From NCBI GenBank assembly GCA_044870765.1, contig JBIOZG010000015.1:10795-74794 (forward strand): DNA of 64,000 nt. The letters are read 5' to 3'. This stretch comes from Nitrososphaeraceae archaeon (GTDB lineage: Archaea > Thermoproteota > Nitrososphaeria > Nitrososphaerales > Nitrososphaeraceae). Positions 17,503 through 32,258 of this stretch are shown here, piece by piece (within the stretch, counting starts at the first letter, position 1; each line of letters opens with the position of its first letter). A program made the translations under genes and the position numbers. Below the pieces are notes generated by a model that did no database searches, was not told the DNA's origin, and worked only from the letters and a program-made list of their open reading frames with translations.

Positions 17503-19215
17503 GTGGAATTAATACAAATATCTAACCGTAGCGTAAATAAAGTTAATACAGACAAGCGAACCATACGATTTACTCAGAGCATTTGCCCAGATTGCAATAT
17601 GATTCTTGATGCAGAAGTTTTTGAAAGAGAAGGTAAAGTCTTTATGACAAAAACTTGTCCGACACACGGAGAATGTGAGGAGCTATACTTTGGTTCCTAC
17701 AAGATGTATAATAAATTTAGCACATATTGGATGGATGGAAAAGGAGCACATGCGCCAAATGTAATGGTGGACAAGTGTGCATGCCCGACTAATTGTGGAT
17801 TGTGTACAAACCATTTGTCACACTCTGGCCTTGCTAATATGATAGTTACAAATAGATGCGATCTTACATGCTGGTATTGTTTCTTTTATGTCAAAAAGGG
17901 CTTAGAAGGTGCATATTTGTATGAGCCTACACATCAGCAAGTTCGAGCCATGATGAAAACCCTAAAGGCGGAAAAACCAATTGCTGGAAATTCAATCCAA
18001 ATCACTGGCGGTGAACCCATGCTAAGGGATGATATCACTGATATCATTAGAATTATGAAAGAAGAGGGTGTGGACCACGTGCAAATGAATACAAATGGTA
18101 TTAAATTGGCACTTTCACCAGAAACAATGCGCCAAGTAAGAAATGCTGGTGTAAGTAATCTCTATTTGTCATTTGATGGAGTAACTCCAAGAACTAATCC
18201 AAAGAATCATTGGGAAGTTCCTTATGCCCTGGAATCTGCAAGAAAATCCGGAACCACTGTAGTATTTGTACCTACTGTAATAAAGTCCATTAATGATCAC
18301 GAGCTAGGCCCAATTATTCGATATGCCCAAAAACATCTTGATGTAGTTCACGCAGTAAACTTCCAACCCGTTTCATTAACCGGTAGAATGGGCAAAAAAG
18401 AGCGAGAAAAATATAGAATTACCATTCCAGACTGTATAGAAAGAATCCAAGAACAAACAAATGGTGAAGTATCAGTCGATGATTGGTTCCCTGTTCCATC
18501 ATGTATGCCGTTGACAAATGTTATTGAGGCATTCAGTAAAAAACCAAAATACGAACTTTCGATTCACTTTGCTTGTGGTGCTGGAACGTATGTATTTGAG
18601 GATACTCAAACCAAGAAGTTAATTCCTCTTACGTCATTTGTTGATCTCAAAGGAGTCTTGGAATACTTTGAAGAAAAAGCTGACGAAATAAAATCAGGTG
18701 CAAATAGATACTGGTCAATGTTGCAGGTAATTAGGAAACTAAATCAATTTATAGACAGAGACAAACAACCTCACGGATTGAATCTCGCAAAGATGTTCTC
18801 GAGTATATTGCTGAAGCGTAATTTTGACTCAGTAGGTTCATGGCATGTTCGTTCGCTCTTCTTGGGAATGATGCACTTCCAGGATAAATATAACGAAGAT
18901 CTTGAGAGACTGCAGAGATGCGATATTCATTATTTGACTCCTGATTTGCGAATTATTCCATTCTGTGCATTTAACGTAATTCCAGAATGGTATAGGGATA
19001 GAATACAAAAGAAATACAGCATTCCGGTCGAAGAATGGGAAAAAGCTCATGGACAAACACTTGAAGCAGGTTTGTATCGTGGTATTATGAGAAAGGGTAA
19101 ACCGGAGGCCCAAATGGGATGTGCAATGTCAGAAATGCACAAGGCAGCTGCCGAATCTATGGAAAATGATGACCACAAGGCCGTTGAATTAAGAAACGGA
19201 ATGGCCGGCGCCTAA
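17503..19215 (+). CDS. tes: tetraether lipid synthase (GDGT macrocyclase, radical SAM)
   Basis: N-terminal CPDC..CPTHG..C, CPTNCGLC..H, CDLTCWYC, NFQPVSLTGR, HFACG, RCDIHY, IIPFCAFN. Confidence 0.88.
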   Translation: MELIQISNRSVNKVNTDKRTIRFTQSICPDCNMILDAEVFEREGKVFMTKTCPTHGECEELYFGSYKMYNKFSTYWMDGKGAHAPNVMVDKCACPTNCGLCTNHLSHSGLANMIVTNRCDLTCWYCFFYVKKGLEGAYLYEPTHQQVRAMMKTLKAEKPIAGNSIQITGGEPMLRDDITDIIRIMKEEGVDHVQMNTNGIKLALSPETMRQVRNAGVSNLYLSFDGVTPRTNPKNHWEVPYALESARKSGTTVVFVPTVIKSINDHELGPIIRYAQKHLDVVHAVNFQPVSLTGRMGKKEREKYRITIPDCIERIQEQTNGEVSVDDWFPVPSCMPLTNVIEAFSKKPKYELSIHFACGAGTYVFEDTQTKKLIPLTSFVDLKGVLEYFEEKADEIKSGANRYWSMLQVIRKLNQFIDRDKQPHGLNLAKMFSSILLKRNFDSVGSWHVRSLFLGMMHFQDKYNEDLERLQRCDIHYLTPDLRIIPFCAFNVIPEWYRDRIQKKYSIPVEEWEKAHGQTLEAGLYRGIMRKGKPEAQMGCAMSEMHKAAAESMENDDHKAVELRNGMAGA

Positions 19216-23951: not shown

Positions 23952-24413
23952 TCATTCATCCTCATCTTCACCAGAACTTGTTGATGCCTGGAAATCCGAT
24001 TCTACATCCATAAGCTGAAGATCTTCTAATTCAAATCTAAATATCGCACTCATTTCAAGATTGTAGTTTGTTTTTAACAACTCTACTAGCTTGGCACTTA
24101 ATTCACCCTTAAACATTCTTATTTTAAATTCATAAATGAATCCTTTTAGAAAGTCTGAAATTTTCAAATTATTTGGAACATCCAAACCTTCTATTATTGT
24201 TCTCCCATCGGAAAGTGCTTCATATATTTGCAAATCAATTTTGTGCGCATCTCCGTAAACTGCTAGAATATAGCCAGATCTTGTCAGGATTTCGGGTTTA
24301 TCAAACTGCACAGCTTTAATTTCGTCTTCTGCCCATTGCGGTAGCGTACCTTCATCTCCGGGTGGGTCACTTTTTGCACCTTTATTTGAAACTTGAGTTT
24401 TTGACCTTGGCAT
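23952..24413 (-). CDS. hypothetical protein with acidic C-terminal tail
   Basis: ORF from MPRSK; beta-rich core; ends SSGEDEDE. Confidence 0.7.
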   Translation of the reverse strand: MPRSKTQVSNKGAKSDPPGDEGTLPQWAEDEIKAVQFDKPEILTRSGYILAVYGDAHKIDLQIYEALSDGRTIIEGLDVPNNLKISDFLKGFIYEFKIRMFKGELSAKLVELLKTNYNLEMSAIFRFELEDLQLMDVESDFQASTSSGEDEDE

Positions 24414-24722
24414 GACTAATTTAATAATGATGTACCACATTTGCTTTCTAAAAAACTTTCTACGTAAATATCGTTAGTTTGACAGCAAATAAAATTGATA
24501 AAAATGGAGCTGCGAAAAATTGTATTGTATATAATTAACATTTTAAAATAATTTCAATGATTCTTTTATCCTCATCTTCCCGCCTGTATTATTGGCACAT
24601 TGTAGAATCAAGCCGTAGATATTATTTGAGATGATAATATTATGATTAATCAAATCAACAGAGGGCAATCACACCATTAAGGCTAAAAACCTTTAATGCC
24701 TTAGAAATTATAGACTATAAAG

Positions 24723-25859
24723 TTGACAATTAACAAAATTTATAGTCACTTAAACTCCATTCGCACAATGACTGTTGGAGAATTAATGGAACCGCCTTTA
24801 ATCATATCCAAGGATGAGGCACTGTCAAAAATTATCAGCACTCTGCTTGAAACTGAATCCTATGACATCTTCATTGATTTGTCTGGAAAAATAGCAGCCT
24901 TGAATATTAGGGATATAATTGGAATCAAAGACATAAAAACTACGCGACCTTCATTGGTTGGGAAAATAATTCCCGCATTGAATACGGGGAGTCGAATTGG
25001 CGAAGCGGCGAGGATAATGAGTCATTACAGGATGAGAACTTTACCTGTAGTTCGCAATGGTAACATTGAGGGACAACTTTCAGCTAGGCGGATTGTTGAA
25101 TTAATCCGGAAGCAGTTGACTGAGAAAAAATTGAAAATTGTCGCATCCAATGTGATGACCGGTGATCCCATAGTTATTGATTCACACAAGACTGTGACAG
25201 CTGCCAAATCCATAATGAAAAGGAGGAGAATTGATCATATACCAGTAGTTGATAACGGGCGTCTTGTCGGCATCATAACTTCATCTGACATTATGAATGT
25301 AATGTCACCTCCTGAAAGGATAGGTAAAAAATCAGTAGGTATTGATAATACTGAAGATAACCTTTCGATTGAAGTTTCTGGACTGGCAAACAATAATGTA
25401 ATAACCGCCGGAGTAGATGAAAGTGTCCAGGTAGTCTGCGATAGAATGCTGAGTTCACGGTCTACTTATTGCATAATTAAATTATGGGATGAAATTCAAG
25501 GCATTATTACTTATAGAGACATTGTTGCACTTTTGGGAGAAAAGATTGAGGAAGAGATACCTATGTTTATCGTGGGACTACCCGATGAACCATTTGACGC
25601 GGAGCTAGCTAAATCGAAATTTGCAAACATCACCAGATTTATGAGAAGAATTCATCCCGATATAGAACAGGCTCGCTGCCACATTAAATTGAGAAGCGTC
25701 TTGGGCTCAAGGAAGAGATACGAAATAGATGTACACATAAGTTCTACTCATGGTAACATTTCTTATACCAATGTCGGTTGGGACTTGGCAAAGCTCTTTG
25801 ATGAAATGACCAATGCTCTGAAAAAAAAGGTTTCCCAAAAACATAAAAGAACTCTATAG
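24723..25859 (+). CDS. 4x CBS domain protein fused to an HPF/RaiA-like domain; candidate ribosome hibernation factor
   Basis: CBS repeats (VGELM..P, LPVV..G.IEG.LS, NVMT..P, IPVVD.G.LVGIIT..DI, GIITYRDI); C-terminal ~90 aa with HPF-like pattern ending GWDLAKLFDEMTNALKKKV. Confidence 0.75.
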   Translation: MTINKIYSHLNSIRTMTVGELMEPPLIISKDEALSKIISTLLETESYDIFIDLSGKIAALNIRDIIGIKDIKTTRPSLVGKIIPALNTGSRIGEAARIMSHYRMRTLPVVRNGNIEGQLSARRIVELIRKQLTEKKLKIVASNVMTGDPIVIDSHKTVTAAKSIMKRRRIDHIPVVDNGRLVGIITSSDIMNVMSPPERIGKKSVGIDNTEDNLSIEVSGLANNNVITAGVDESVQVVCDRMLSSRSTYCIIKLWDEIQGIITYRDIVALLGEKIEEEIPMFIVGLPDEPFDAELAKSKFANITRFMRRIHPDIEQARCHIKLRSVLGSRKRYEIDVHISSTHGNISYTNVGWDLAKLFDEMTNALKKKVSQKHKRTL

Positions 25860-26153: not shown

Positions 26154-27224
26154 TTAGGCTATGCATAATTCTTCATTTAGTGGGTAAAGATATACATTAG
26201 CTGTTTCCTCTCCAATTCTTGTTGAGTGAATTCTTATCCCATTTTGGATTTCTTCTCCGTCTATTCCTATTCCTTGTACGCCAAGTATTGATCCAGGTTC
26301 AATTGATTCATCACTGGGTATGAATTGATTTCCGGGATATGGTTCTAGTGTAACTCTTTCTTCTCCCAGTATTCCTAAATCTCGCACTGAATTGGACATG
26401 ACACGTCCCCCGTCGTTCAAGATCATATCTATGTCGTATAGTCGTCTAACCTGTACCATCGCAGAATGCATATCGAAGTTTTTGCCCGTTACAACATAAT
26501 CAACCAAATCTGATTCAGGAATTAACCTTGATGCGTATTCATGCCCTGATTCATTTGTCAAAAAGATCACACTAATTCCGTTTTTGGGATCAAGAATTTT
26601 TATTTTGTTTTTCAGGTAGAGATCAGCCAGTTTAAGTCTACGAAATGTTTTATCAGATCTGGCTACAACAAATTGATGGAACATTGAATTTGTAACTATT
26701 TTTTCTCTAAGCTTTATGAGATCTTCGTAAATTTCTGGAGCTAATTCTCTTACAGCATCTCCAAAAAATTCCCAATTCCAAATTTGTTCTTTGTTGACAA
26801 CTAGATTGTCTGCGCTTATCATCATTGCTTTTGAACCCATCAAGATTCTGTGAGTTGACGCAAATATGCTATCTCCTAACTTTCTAGTCCCACCAGTTAA
26901 AGATAAAACGCCACCACCAGGTTTATGAGTAATCTTGTAAATGTAAACCCCTTTACCACTATCCTTTGTTCTTGCTGCGACATAACTTGTGGCTTGATAC
27001 GGGACACTCATCTTACTAACATAACCAGAAGAAGCACCGATAACTATCTCTGGTAAAATTTTACCCAGATATTCGAGTCCAAAGTCAATCGAAGGTGATA
27101 TAACCTTTAGACCTCTATTGATAAAATGACAATAGAGTTCTTCTGAGATTGCTCCAATTTCTAATAATAATGATAGTTGTTTCTTATATCTTGACGTTGT
27201 AGAGGCCATAGAACAAGTTAGCAT
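26154..27224 (-). CDS. divergent RibD-C/dihydrofolate-reductase-fold protein
   Basis: THRILMGSKAMMISADNL and DMILNDGGRVMSNSVRDLGILGEERVTLEP resemble RibD-C motifs. Confidence 0.55.
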   Translation of the reverse strand: MLTCSMASTTSRYKKQLSLLLEIGAISEELYCHFINRGLKVISPSIDFGLEYLGKILPEIVIGASSGYVSKMSVPYQATSYVAARTKDSGKGVYIYKITHKPGGGVLSLTGGTRKLGDSIFASTHRILMGSKAMMISADNLVVNKEQIWNWEFFGDAVRELAPEIYEDLIKLREKIVTNSMFHQFVVARSDKTFRRLKLADLYLKNKIKILDPKNGISVIFLTNESGHEYASRLIPESDLVDYVVTGKNFDMHSAMVQVRRLYDIDMILNDGGRVMSNSVRDLGILGEERVTLEPYPGNQFIPSDESIEPGSILGVQGIGIDGEEIQNGIRIHSTRIGEETANVYLYPLNEELCIA

Positions 27225-27238
27225 AGGGCTATATTATC

Positions 27239-29710
27239 TTGTTTTTAGGTAGCACAATTGAGAAAATTCATAAATCTCTTACCTTTACCACAAAACAATT
27301 GACAGTAATATCTAAAATTCTACTTCTTTTACTTCTGATTTTGGTAGTGACCGTTTCATCACTTACTAATATGCATGCGCTAGAATCAAGCGAAAAGGGT
27401 GCATATACCGACAACATACGATTCATTCAATATCTGGACGGAAATACAGCTCTGCGTGATATTAAAGCAGGAAATCTTGACACATACTTGTTTAGAATAC
27501 CACTTGAAACAGTAGCGTCTATTTCAAATGATACTAATGTAAAGATATATGAAAAAAATGCCGGTTCATTCTCCTTCCTTTTAAATCCTGCACCAGCAAA
27601 GAATCCAAACATTTTAAATCCCTTCCAATTCAAAGAAATTCGCTTCGCAGTAAATTACTTGATAAATCGTGAATTTATCGTAGATGAAATCCTAAATGGC
27701 TATGGAAGCGTCCAGATAGACCCATTTGGAATTTCCTCACCCGAATACGAAGCTCTTATTCCAGTTCTAGAGTCTTACAACTTCAAATATAATCCAAATC
27801 TTGCAAAAGACATAATAGAGAAAACATTGATTTCAAATGGTGCAACAAAGCTAGACGGTAAATGGACGTACAAAGGATCACCCCTCTCAATTAAAATTAT
27901 GATAAGAAGTGATGATCTACCAAGAAAATCTATGGGTGAAATTCTTGCAAATCAACTTGAAAATATTGGCTTTACCGTAGAAAGATACTTCGGTGATCTA
28001 AATAAGGCAAATGTCATAGTTTACGGCACAGACCCACAGGACTTAAGTTGGCAAGTTTATACGGAAGGTTTCGGAGGAACATCTCAATTTGTTAGATACA
28101 ATCCTTCCACGGCAGCTCAAATGTACTCACCATATTTTGGTAGAATGCCTGGATGGGCAAATCCAACCTATTGGAACTATCAAAATTCATCTCTTAATAA
28201 CCTAACACAAAGTATAGCGTTTTCCAATTTTACCTCTGAAGAGGAACGAAATGAATTATTACGGCAGGCGTTAAGATTAGGAATACAGGAATCTGTAAGA
28301 ATTTTTGTAACTCAAAATATTGATCCATATGCGGCATCCTCATCAATTAATGGATTAATAAATGATTTTGGTGCAGGTATTTCTACCAGTAAGTCTCTCA
28401 TTAACGCGAGGTCAGCAAAAAATGCAAGTACCATAAATGTTGGCGTCAAGGAAATTTATCAAGGGGCATGGAATAGCGTTGGGGGATGTAATGATATCTA
28501 CTGTACAAATATTTTTTCATTAGTCTCTGATGCCCCTACATCTAGAAATCCATATACTGGTGAAGTGATTCCTTTGAGAAACGAGTGGACAAATGTTACA
28601 ACTATGGGACCAGAAAAGAGACTCGCCGTAGATAATGATGCTCTAACATGGAATCCATATAACCAAAGATGGGACGAGGTTGGAAAGAATACATCCAAAA
28701 GTAAGGTTAACCTTCATATGGTATATTCAAACTGGCAAAACGGTCAGCCTATGAACAAGGCTGATCTAATTTATCCACTTTACTTTCAATATGAGTGGTC
28801 GTCCAAGATTAATTCAAATGATCTTACATATGACCCGGAGTTCGCCGCACAGGCCGAAGTCGCACTAAAATATCTTCGCGGCACTAAGTTTCTAAATGAC
28901 AGTAATGTTATATCATTCGTTGACTATTGGCATTTTGATAAGAAGGAAATTGCTGATTTTGCTTCGGTTTGGGCAACATCTCCCTGGGAAGTAAATGCTG
29001 CAATAGAGAGATTGGTAAAAAACGGAAACTTTGCATACTCACGATCAGAAGCAACTGTCAAGAACATTGAATGGTTATCTTTGATAATACCCAGTCATGC
29101 ACAGGCAATAAGGCAAGAATTAGAAAAAATGAAAACAGAACGGTTCGTACCTGCCCCATTAAAGGGTATAGTTACTGTTGATGAGGCTTTAAAGAGATAT
29201 GATGCAAGTATAAAATGGATAACAGAACATAACCACGCAATAATTGGTAATGGACCCTATGAAATTAAGAACTATAATCCAACTGGGAGAGTAATATCCC
29301 TAACGGCATTTAGAGATAGTTCTTATCCATTTGCAAAAGGATACTGGTCTAACTATGAAACTGTAAAACTAACGAAATTTGAAAAGGTTCAATATCCAAA
29401 AATAGTTACAAGGGGTTTACCAGTATCTATTTCAGGTAATGTCACTATTGGTGGTGACCATGACAGTAACGCAACATTAACATATTTTATTTTTGATAAG
29501 AATAATCATCTCATAACTCAAGGAGAAGGTAGATGGATAGATGATAAAGGGAATTTTATGATTGTGATTAATGGTAACTCTACTAAAGCAATGTCTATTG
29601 GACCAAATGAATTTGAATTATTCGTCAAGAGCAATTATGCTCTAAGACCTGATATCTATAGTGGTATTCTTATAACTGCGCCAAACCCGATAATCAAAAA
29701 ACTAGCCTAA
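27239..29710 (+). CDS. ABC transporter peptide/nickel-type substrate-binding protein (family 5); true start probably later
   Basis: N-terminal TM/signal; NPF..KEIRFAVNYLINRE; IGNGPYEI; extra C-terminal beta domain. Confidence 0.88.
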   Translation: MFLGSTIEKIHKSLTFTTKQLTVISKILLLLLLILVVTVSSLTNMHALESSEKGAYTDNIRFIQYLDGNTALRDIKAGNLDTYLFRIPLETVASISNDTNVKIYEKNAGSFSFLLNPAPAKNPNILNPFQFKEIRFAVNYLINREFIVDEILNGYGSVQIDPFGISSPEYEALIPVLESYNFKYNPNLAKDIIEKTLISNGATKLDGKWTYKGSPLSIKIMIRSDDLPRKSMGEILANQLENIGFTVERYFGDLNKANVIVYGTDPQDLSWQVYTEGFGGTSQFVRYNPSTAAQMYSPYFGRMPGWANPTYWNYQNSSLNNLTQSIAFSNFTSEEERNELLRQALRLGIQESVRIFVTQNIDPYAASSSINGLINDFGAGISTSKSLINARSAKNASTINVGVKEIYQGAWNSVGGCNDIYCTNIFSLVSDAPTSRNPYTGEVIPLRNEWTNVTTMGPEKRLAVDNDALTWNPYNQRWDEVGKNTSKSKVNLHMVYSNWQNGQPMNKADLIYPLYFQYEWSSKINSNDLTYDPEFAAQAEVALKYLRGTKFLNDSNVISFVDYWHFDKKEIADFASVWATSPWEVNAAIERLVKNGNFAYSRSEATVKNIEWLSLIIPSHAQAIRQELEKMKTERFVPAPLKGIVTVDEALKRYDASIKWITEHNHAIIGNGPYEIKNYNPTGRVISLTAFRDSSYPFAKGYWSNYETVKLTKFEKVQYPKIVTRGLPVSISGNVTIGGDHDSNATLTYFIFDKNNHLITQGEGRWIDDKGNFMIVINGNSTKAMSIGPNEFELFVKSNYALRPDIYSGILITAPNPIIKKLA

Positions 29711-29833
29711 TAAACCAAACAGAATTTGTTTGCAATTGGAAAAAGTAGATCTGCCAGTAGTGTTTACAAGATAAAATGATTGAAGATGATCCATTTATTA
29801 AGATATATTGATAACCTAATAAAGTAAAAGCAA

Positions 29834-30877
29834 TTGGGTCTAGGAAGAACCTTACTATTTCGTTCATTTAATATGTTTTTGGTATTGTTCGCAGTTCTCT
29901 TTATAACTGTAATTCTAGTAGATTCAACTTTCGATAAACAACAGAAGGAGGCTATACGAAATCAAGTGATCGAAGAAGTAAGTCAAGGAACACTTAAATT
30001 TGAAAATTCAGATGAAAGATCATCTTACATAAATAATCAAATCCAGTTTAGAGAGAAAGCCACTGGATTGGATCAAGATTCATTGAATCCCTCAATATTG
30101 ATTTCCAGGGTTATTAGTGTAATGACCTTTGATTTAGGAAAATCTCATTTTTTCACAACAGATTATGGGTCATCTAATGTAAAGGATATTATATTCGAAA
30201 AAGTTCCAAAAACTCTCTTGTTGTTTACTACAGCAACTATATGCGCTTTTGTTATTGGTATCTTTCTTGGTACATATGTCGCTGGTAAAGAAGGATCCTG
30301 GTGGGATAAATTCAATTCAATTTCTGCAATATTTAGTAACAGCTTTCCATCATGGTGGATAGCAATGTTAATGATCTTAATCTTTGCCTTCGCATTACAT
30401 ATATTCCCAGCTCGGGCAACACCTCTTTCTTCGCCTTCTGATCCTACTTATATTCTTGATTTGCTATATCATATGGCCCTGCCACTAATTACATTGATTA
30501 TTGTTTCATTTGGTGGGGTGGCGTATATTGTGAGATATTTCTTGATAAATATCTTGAATGAAGATTTTATTCATGCAAAAAGAACAATGGGAATATCCAG
30601 ACGAAAAATTTTATATTCACACGCGCTTAGAAATGCTGGACCACCAATAGCTACTGCTGTAGGATTAGCTTTGGCGTCTTCTTTTGGAGGTGCAATTATA
30701 CTAGAGGCCGTTTTTGATTGGCCGGGCATGGGAAAACTCTATTATGATGCAATAGGACAGTTTGACGTTCCAATTATAATTGGCCTCACTTTTATCTCCA
30801 CAGTAATTTTTTTAGTAACAATATTCATTACCGACATTTCTTATACTCTGTTGGACCCTAGGGTGAAAGGTAACTAA
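29834..30877 (+). CDS. peptide ABC transporter permease (OppB/DppB-like)
   Basis: FDLGKS, HMALP, EDFIHAKRTMG (EAA loop), HALRNA, EAVFDWPGMG. Confidence 0.92.
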   Translation: MGLGRTLLFRSFNMFLVLFAVLFITVILVDSTFDKQQKEAIRNQVIEEVSQGTLKFENSDERSSYINNQIQFREKATGLDQDSLNPSILISRVISVMTFDLGKSHFFTTDYGSSNVKDIIFEKVPKTLLLFTTATICAFVIGIFLGTYVAGKEGSWWDKFNSISAIFSNSFPSWWIAMLMILIFAFALHIFPARATPLSSPSDPTYILDLLYHMALPLITLIIVSFGGVAYIVRYFLINILNEDFIHAKRTMGISRRKILYSHALRNAGPPIATAVGLALASSFGGAIILEAVFDWPGMGKLYYDAIGQFDVPIIIGLTFISTVIFLVTIFITDISYTLLDPRVKGN

Positions 30878-30881
30878 TTTA

Positions 30882-32258
30882 TTGCAAAAAGAATTACTGG
30901 TGGGTCTATTAAGATCTCGTCGGGGAATTATTGGAATATCAATTATTGGTTTTCTATTGTTATTGAGTGCAGTAGCACCATTAACCATACCAATTGAATC
31001 CTATTTTATGTGGAATAATCCAGATTATTGGATTAATAATCCAAAAACAGCCGCGCCTTCTTGGACTAATTTTTTTGGACCCAAAGAATTTGAGCATGTA
31101 TCGTTAGATAAGAGCGATGCAAAAGTTATTTCAGAATCATTAGAAGGGATTAGAGTAGATAACTATAGATTTGAAATCAATATGCAAGCAGATAGCTTTC
31201 CTGATGACATTATCTTTCTATACTCTGCTAAATACGGTGATATACCTCCGGTTTTGCAAATTGACATTAGCAGACCTGACAACAATACTTTTACTGTTTA
31301 TTATTCATCATTACCTCCAGCAAGTAACATGAACACTACTTTTTCAGACAGGATCTTTTCTACAAACGAAAATATCGAAGAGGCTTTGAATCAATACCAA
31401 AGCTACTTTAATTATTCAATATCGGGTCTTGAACCGCAAGTGGTAATATTTTCAGATACCGATAAACCAAGTGTCCTTAAAGGAGTATATCAAATATCAG
31501 AAAGATTTTTTTTATTTGATAATTACAGCAGCGTCGAAGATGCTGGGTTAATTCTTGGAGGTAAAGTATTCGGTATCATAGGAACTGATGACTTGAGAAG
31601 AGATCTTGCTGTCGGCATCATATGGGGGACTCCTATAGCATTATTCATAGGATTAACTGTTTCATTATTTTCAGTAGCTATAGGACTGGTTTATGGTGTA
31701 GTAGCTGGATATAGAGGAAAGAGAACTGATGAAACAATGATGCGAGTCAATGATATATTTTACGCGTTGCCAACCTTGCCGCTCCTTATTCTTCTTTCGA
31801 TTATTTATGGGAGTAACATCCTTCTAATAATTGGATTTTTACTAATTTTCAGCTGGATGGGAACTGCAAAAATAACTAGAAGCATTGCATTACAGATGCG
31901 CAATTTTCAGTATGTTGAAGCAGCTAAACTAATGGGACAGTCCGATTTAAAGGTAATATTCAAACACATAATTCCACAGTTACTTCCACTGACATTTGCA
32001 AGTGTAGCAATAGCTGTTCCTGCAGCTATTCTTACCGAAGCTGCATTGAGCTTTCTCGGTTTGGGAGATCCATCATTACCTACTTGGGGACAACTACTTC
32101 ATGAAGCAAATACCGCAGATGCTGCATCACGAGGTATATGGTGGTGGATTGTGCCTCCTGGACTTATGATTGCATTAACCGCCCTGGCATTTTTCTTGAT
32201 TGGAAATACACTCGACTCTATTGCAAATCCATTAAGAAACAAGAATAAGAAAGCATAG
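30882..32258 (+). CDS. peptide ABC transporter permease (OppC/DppC-like) with large extracytoplasmic insertion
   Basis: GTDDLRRD, YVEAAKLMG, HIIP, EAALSFLGLGDP..PTWG. Confidence 0.92.
   Translation: MQKELLVGLLRSRRGIIGISIIGFLLLLSAVAPLTIPIESYFMWNNPDYWINNPKTAAPSWTNFFGPKEFEHVSLDKSDAKVISESLEGIRVDNYRFEINMQADSFPDDIIFLYSAKYGDIPPVLQIDISRPDNNTFTVYYSSLPPASNMNTTFSDRIFSTNENIEEALNQYQSYFNYSISGLEPQVVIFSDTDKPSVLKGVYQISERFFLFDNYSSVEDAGLILGGKVFGIIGTDDLRRDLAVGIIWGTPIALFIGLTVSLFSVAIGLVYGVVAGYRGKRTDETMMRVNDIFYALPTLPLLILLSIIYGSNILLIIGFLLIFSWMGTAKITRSIALQMRNFQYVEAAKLMGQSDLKVIFKHIIPQLLPLTFASVAIAVPAAILTEAALSFLGLGDPSLPTWGQLLHEANTADAASRGIWWWIVPPGLMIALTALAFFLIGNTLDSIANPLRNKNKKA

Follow-up and report, generated by a model that had tools for sequence, protein, structure and literature searches.

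The closest described systems to the gene analysed here are HibA of Pyrococcus abyssi (Q9UYR4; PDB 9SR9-9SRF, 9T7H; Madru et al., Nat Commun 2026, PMC13324472) and AHA of Haloferax volcanii (HVO_2384, D4GWN2; Souza et al., EMBO J 2026, PMC13728122), members of a ribosome hibernation factor family described in 2025–2026, a 2025 Hib preprint included, and studied by cryo-EM, deletions, and translation assays. HibA carries four CBS repeats followed by an HPF/RaiA domain, binds the 30S subunit, and was reported in three positions on the 50S subunit; inhibition of translation requires its C-terminal domain, the isolated CBS module being non-inhibitory (PMC13324472). In Thermococcus barophilus, a deletion strain had ~60% fewer 70S ribosomes, and loss of the factor delayed regrowth (PMC13324472). 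Like HibA, AHA binds in the 30S mRNA/tRNA channel and inhibits translation, and its deletion in H. volcanii led to loss of viability and of ribosomes and to delayed regrowth (PMC13728122). HibA was found in 47% of 4026 archaeal genomes, with most of the HPF-only forms coming from DPANN and Nitrososphaerales (PMC13324472), and the AHA survey retrieved 3160 proteins from 2723 species, using N. viennensis A0A977ICN8 as a PSI-BLAST seed (PMC13728122). SriA-D/ARC/Dri (PMC13454478; PDB 9ZNF-9ZNI, 9E6Q), which are ribosome hibernation factors as well, have a related CBS tetrad without an HPF domain.

We examined a window of 64,000 nucleotides in which the initial annotation had placed, from the sequence alone, a fusion of a CBS tetrad and an HPF/RaiA-like domain, and had suspected that the family might already be named. 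The host genome (2.02 Mb, 96.65% complete) contains archaeal amoA (E 3.6e-119) and the close homologues of the protein are named Nitrososphaeraceae, which bears out the suggestion that the host is an ammonia oxidizer. The features of the locus are as follows.

24723..25859, forward strand: hibA/aha gene, 378 aa; intact frame from TTG to TAG, with TTG in 4/4 loci of the genus
24684..24698, forward strand: putative BRE/TATA promoter element, an A-run followed by a TTTAAT that begins 31 nt ahead of the TTG
24765..25538, forward strand: four CBS repeats forming two Bateman modules, at residues ~15-272, placed by PF00571, the AlphaFold model, and Foldseek
25305..25364, forward strand: long loop after CBS3, residues 195-214 (putative PTC loop / loop 3), a low-pLDDT coil that aligns with HibA 188-206
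25560..25850, forward strand: C-terminal HPF/RaiA-fold domain, placed by AlphaFold secondary structure, Foldseek, VIA, a C-terminal profile, and Pfam matches of homologues

Judged from its sequence and predicted structure, the protein is very probably (rough probability 0.9) the HibA/AHA ribosome hibernation factor of its ammonia-oxidizing host. The main evidence came from an alignment of 86 sequences, comprising the query, four close homologues, and 81 near-full-length proteins from the best 150 listed, with fragments and multi-repeat proteins left out. When the profile of this alignment was searched against the PDB, P. abyssi HibA (9SR9_H) ranked first, in one alignment block that spans the two modules (profile 62-369, E 2.1e-62), followed by 9L96, a 406-aa protein likewise matched over both modules (E 3.9e-54), and then by CBS-only proteins at 1.8e-45 or weaker. 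Among the latter, SriA-D/ARC/Dri matched at E 1e-45 to 1e-36 and were also retrieved by Foldseek; they lack the HPF domain that the query carries, which places the query outside Sri/Dri/ARC. Identity to HibA is low, and a single-sequence comparison matched it over CBS2-3 only (E 3.4e-8). The two proteins share the arrangement of four CBS repeats and an HPF/RaiA domain at similar length (392 aa in HibA, 378 aa in the query), while insertions specific to the HibA HPF domain are shorter in the query by two and one residues in the profile alignment; AHA, by description, is also like the query, with 4xCBS, HPF, and loop 3 in CBS3. The suspicion that the family had a name thus proved right, the published names being HibA (PMC13324472) and AHA (PMC13728122). 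Because this fusion is already described as widespread, the query is one more ordinary representative of an established family. The further remark that nothing in the lineage had been characterized held for experiments, since we found no experimental HibA/AHA study in the literature searched on ammonia oxidizers and no assay on any Nitrososphaerales member; it did not hold for computation, since N. viennensis A0A977ICN8 seeded the AHA search and Nitrososphaerales were included in the HibA survey. Since the papers of 2025–2026 cover how HibA/AHA is built, how it works, its genetics, and its distribution, with the lineage in their surveys, the discovery value is small; what is gained is a corrected annotation, from the CBS-domain protein of most databases to HibA/AHA, and a candidate gene for starvation survival in soil ammonia oxidizers. 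Among the best 120 of 550 close homologues (80-98% identity), the names given are Nitrososphaeraceae or Nitrosopumilales CBS proteins, and some JGI names already include "ribosome-associated translation inhibitor RaiA".

The gene runs through 378 codons on the forward strand without interruption, the opposite frame being full of stops. The TTG start is in register in all four same-genus loci, the query locus included, and in each of them an A-run precedes a TTTA(A/T)T element that starts 31 nt 5' of it. The promoter reading of this element follows from the spacing of archaeal promoters in general, and it would imply that the mRNA is leaderless or nearly leaderless. A start at Met16, given in some database entries, is less likely than TTG because the TTG and its promoter spacing are conserved. 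Compared with one same-genus orthologue, the gene differs at 248 nucleotides, 161 of them at third codon positions, and amino acid changes affect 13 of 103 codons in the C-terminal domain vs. 60 of the 275 that make up the CBS portion, which suggests that purifying selection is stronger on the C-terminal domain in this pair. Fourteen RNA runs from soil or rhizosphere contain part of the stretch; of four of these runs examined, three cover the open reading frame without flanking intergenic DNA and one covers nearly everything, as would be expected of DNA. Since these contigs were selected for containing hibA/aha, they were not counted as proof of expression.

The claim of four CBS motifs in two Bateman modules was upheld, although Pfam PF00571 scored only three CBS stretches (E 6e-28), the first repeat being degenerate. 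An AlphaFold model of the full protein, built on 86 sequences (pLDDT 90.7), matched four-CBS proteins over ~280 columns in Foldseek, among them 3DDJ (E 1.4e-18), SriA, AMPK gamma, and MJ1225, so that the first repeat, for all its degeneracy, is a true one. Complete G-h-h-T-x-x-D motifs are present in CBS3 (183-189) and CBS4 (260-266) and are degenerate in CBS1 and CBS2. HibA was not among the matches listed for the full model, where the CBS tetrad filled the list. In the ESM Atlas, CBS clusters from Nitrososphaerota were retrieved, one of them with 11% S30AE members.

The C-terminal domain was next compared with the HPF/RaiA family. All six motifs on which the initial annotation had based its assignment are present in the frame, namely MFIVGL (281-286), AELAKSKFANITRFMRR (293-309), ARCHIKL (317-323), RYEIDVHIS (332-340), ISYTNVG (346-352), and WDLAKLFDEMTNALKKKV (353-370), and the end of the chain is basic as described (seven K/R vs. 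two D/E in 355-378). The predicted secondary structure (E281-284, H290-310, E314-327, E330-341, E344-352, H355-376) reproduces the proposed order of a strand, a helix, three strands, and a helix, in a domain of ~97 aa where ~90 aa had been estimated. Folded alone and submitted to Foldseek, a check that had been suggested for this part of the protein, the domain retrieved HPF/RaiA/PSRP1/MPY proteins first (best E 1.3e-5, TM 0.72), and in VIA-align ranks 1-16 were all of the HPF family (Z 12.4-7.9), the first unrelated row scoring 7.4. A profile of 27 C-terminal sequences had S. aureus HPF as its top match (E 0.0033), and 18 of the 86 alignment members matched Pfam Ribosomal_S30AE at E<=0.01. 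Pfam, the model, and the profile and fold searches together confirm the fusion architecture. The single sequence is divergent: it gave no Pfam S30AE (PF02482) match and scored 18.8 bits against TIGR00741, for which the curated cut-off is 40.9, which counts against the HibA/AHA assignment, and a single-sequence PDB search with the C-terminal 104 aa returned chance matches only (ATP synthase epsilon, E 0.37). The query domain has the fold of bacterial and plastid HPF/RaiA/PSRP1/MPY (PF02482; TM ~0.7, Z up to 12.4) and shares with bacterial and plastid HPF/RaiA the D-L-x-x-x-x-D helix start; unlike the query these proteins have no CBS module, and the query has no long-HPF dimerization domain. It therefore shares the bacterial HPF/YfiA fold but is not a strict member of that family, given scores below the TIGR00741 and PF02482 cut-offs and the CBS fusion. 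A Pfam S30AE search of the host genome gave no match; this reflects divergence, since the lineage profile does find hibA/aha, which is the only C-terminal-profile match in the genome. Other CBS proteins of the host match the family profile over part of the CBS module only, and no further CBS-tetrad protein of the Sri/ARC/Dri type stood out.

Functional residues were compared by transferring HibA numbering through the printed profile alignment and the profile-to-query map. The long loop after CBS3 aligns with HibA 188-206, a segment that takes in most of residues 190-207, the PTC loop that enters the peptidyl-transferase center in HibA/AHA; the stretch 190-217 is 28 aa long in the query and 27-29 aa in 68 of the 81 diverse homologues, so its length is kept while its sequence varies. 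Contacts with the 30S subunit are retained in part. HibA F288, R366, and Q370 correspond to F291, K368, and Q372 of the query, and HibA R299, R336, H358, and R362 are replaced by N302, H338, D360, and N364. The query ends at about HibA R376, its tail being ~10 residues short of the last ribosome contacts of HibA; this earlier end leaves the contacts of HibA 378-386 (uS7, uS11, eS28, h23, and E-site tRNA) without a counterpart. Twenty-three residues follow Leu355 in the query and in three other same-genus loci; elsewhere in the order the count is 28-51 for 25 loci, with one further locus truncated, and it is >23 in 74 of the 81 diverse homologues. The lack of basic character at several 16S-contacting positions and the missing 378-386 contacts speak against the HibA/AHA reading; many HibA-ribosome contacts are redundant according to the HibA report (PMC13324472). 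The same substitutions and short tail would suit a CBS regulator that no longer binds ribosomes and whose repurposed HPF-fold domain serves a different RNA or protein partner; in pull-downs, HibA orthologues came with proteins of DNA replication and recombination (PMC13324472). We consider such repurposing very improbable, given the stronger purifying selection on this domain than on the CBS part, the retained length of the PTC loop, and a host genome in which no other HPF-domain gene was found.

For the HibA/AHA factor favored here, orthology, fold, architecture, and the retained loop and pocket residues are seen in the query, and we infer all of its activity from its orthologues; by that orthology it would, with high likelihood, silence ribosomes. 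The HPF domain would plug the 30S subunit's mRNA/tRNA channel, the tethered CBS disc would fill the vacant tRNA space on the 50S subunit, and the long loop after CBS3 would reach the peptidyl-transferase center, so that idle 70S ribosomes would be kept together and protected against decay while energy or ammonia is lacking, allowing fast regrowth; we regard this sequence of events as highly probable.

How the factor might be controlled turns on the pocket between CBS3 and CBS4, which probably binds an adenylate, with AMP predicted to bind best. AHA has AMP between CBS3 and CBS4, and its structure contains two AMPs (PMC13728122); the CBS module of HibA binds AMP, ADP, and ATP with affinities of 12, 65, and 113 uM (PMC13324472). 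Eight of the 12 HibA ATP-contact residues are identical in the query (T146, D148, I150, I170, P174, I261, T263, and D266), and the remaining four differ: D96, V140, S162, and R163 of HibA correspond to R103, P149, D171, and H172. The charge of the pocket thus differs between HibA (D96/S162/R163) and the query (R103/D171/H172), 9L96 having Thr-His where HibA has Ser-Arg. Asp171 is present in 29/29 other loci of the order and 56/81 diverse homologues, and Arg103 in 28/29 and 53/81, so the charge swap is branch-wide and not a sign of decay. This charge-swapped pocket and the short tail, or the host genome itself, may already stand in the supplements of the HibA and AHA papers.

It is possible, at less than even odds, that the factor silences ribosomes with a CBS pocket that no longer senses nucleotides, the HPF domain doing the work, the CBS disc serving as a space filler, and control depending on how abundant the factor is or on tRNA and mRNA competing with it; such a reading would modify the HibA/AHA explanation, not replace it. 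Asp171 lies at the position of HibA Ser162, which contacts the ATP beta-phosphate (PMC13324472), the order includes HPF-only forms (among 104 listed matches, 23 lie in frames of <210 aa), and in HibA itself AMP or ATP had no clear effect on ribosome binding and left the ribosome-bound conformations largely unchanged, with the CBS module alone non-inhibitory (PMC13324472). Against a mere filler, the CBS4 Thr263/Asp266 pair is invariant in 29/29 other loci, and Arg103 in place of HibA Asp96 may restore phosphate-binding charge; their conservation therefore argues for a working ligand site. A true adenylate switch, in which AMP favors ribosome engagement and ATP releases the factor, is a comparably tentative proposal, and gating by adenylate charge had been inferred in the initial annotation. 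It would fit the two AMPs bound beside loop 3 in ribosome-bound AHA and AHA levels that stay constant across growth phases (PMC13728122), as well as the release by ATP reported for the CBS-only ARC complex (preprint 10.64898/2026.01.19.700304), while the lack of a clear nucleotide effect on HibA in reconstitution (PMC13324472) weighs against it. Even for the characterized HibA/AHA members gating is a conjecture that we would hold below even odds, and for AHA it was put forward as a proposal only (PMC13728122). The remaining probability goes to other modes of control, for example a partner that sequesters the factor. A more specific and unlikely version is that the Arg103/Asp171/His172 pocket rejects the beta and gamma phosphates of ADP and ATP, or bridges them through Mg2+, so that adenylate charge switches ribosome binding in this branch; if true, it would explain how soil ammonia oxidizers park and recover ribosomes between ammonia pulses. 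Because the pocket differs from the one that was assayed, the Nitrososphaerales branch offers a test of adenylate gating in HibA/AHA.

To examine the prevalence of the gene, we searched 151 sampled genomes of the order, the host included, and found the C-terminal domain in 94 of them, and in 66 of the 103 of high quality. By hand count, 23 of 104 listed HPF-type matches fall in frames of <210 aa, two of these at contig starts; this agrees with the HPF-only forms already reported. With the query C-terminal domain as the sole probe, no match was found in 6/6 genomes of another genus of the same family. Five genomes (G078, G149, G146, G015, and G079) each contain two to three long frames with an HPF-type domain, which are possible hibA paralogues. 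On contig C26 of the host genome, a stretch of <20 kb (G000:C26:8716-27870) contains four CBS-domain genes, and one 257-aa frame among them may hold >2 CBS repeats.

In the window, hibA/aha lies outside any operon, between a divergent gene upstream and a convergent gene downstream. With 1.5-kb flanks compared, the upstream neighbor was found beside it in 2/3 and the downstream neighbor in 3/3 same-genus loci, and neither in the other loci (0/26); an operon or conserved neighborhood as functional context was therefore rejected, and because both neighbors accompany hibA/aha only within the genus, genomic context adds nothing to its interpretation. The upstream gene (23952-24440, reverse strand) encodes a 162-aa acidic protein, 75-80% conserved in two of the three same-genus loci, that had no significant family match in Pfam or NCBIfam. 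The downstream gene (26154-27224, reverse strand) encodes a 356-aa protein, 67-79% conserved in the three loci, that had no Pfam, NCBIfam, or significant PDB match; its C-terminal 'LNDGG...LGILGEERVTLEP' stretch is, we presume, reminiscent of the RibD/dihydrofolate-reductase-like reductase fold. Beyond it, at 27239-32258 on the forward strand, lies an ordinary peptide/nickel-type ABC transporter, consisting of an 823-aa solute-binding protein (PF00496) and two permease-like frames. At 17503-19215 on the forward strand, a frame of 570 aa encodes a radical SAM protein that begins with a zinc ribbon of the HMPTM type (PF04055, PF23545) and may resemble tetraether-lipid-related radical SAM enzymes.
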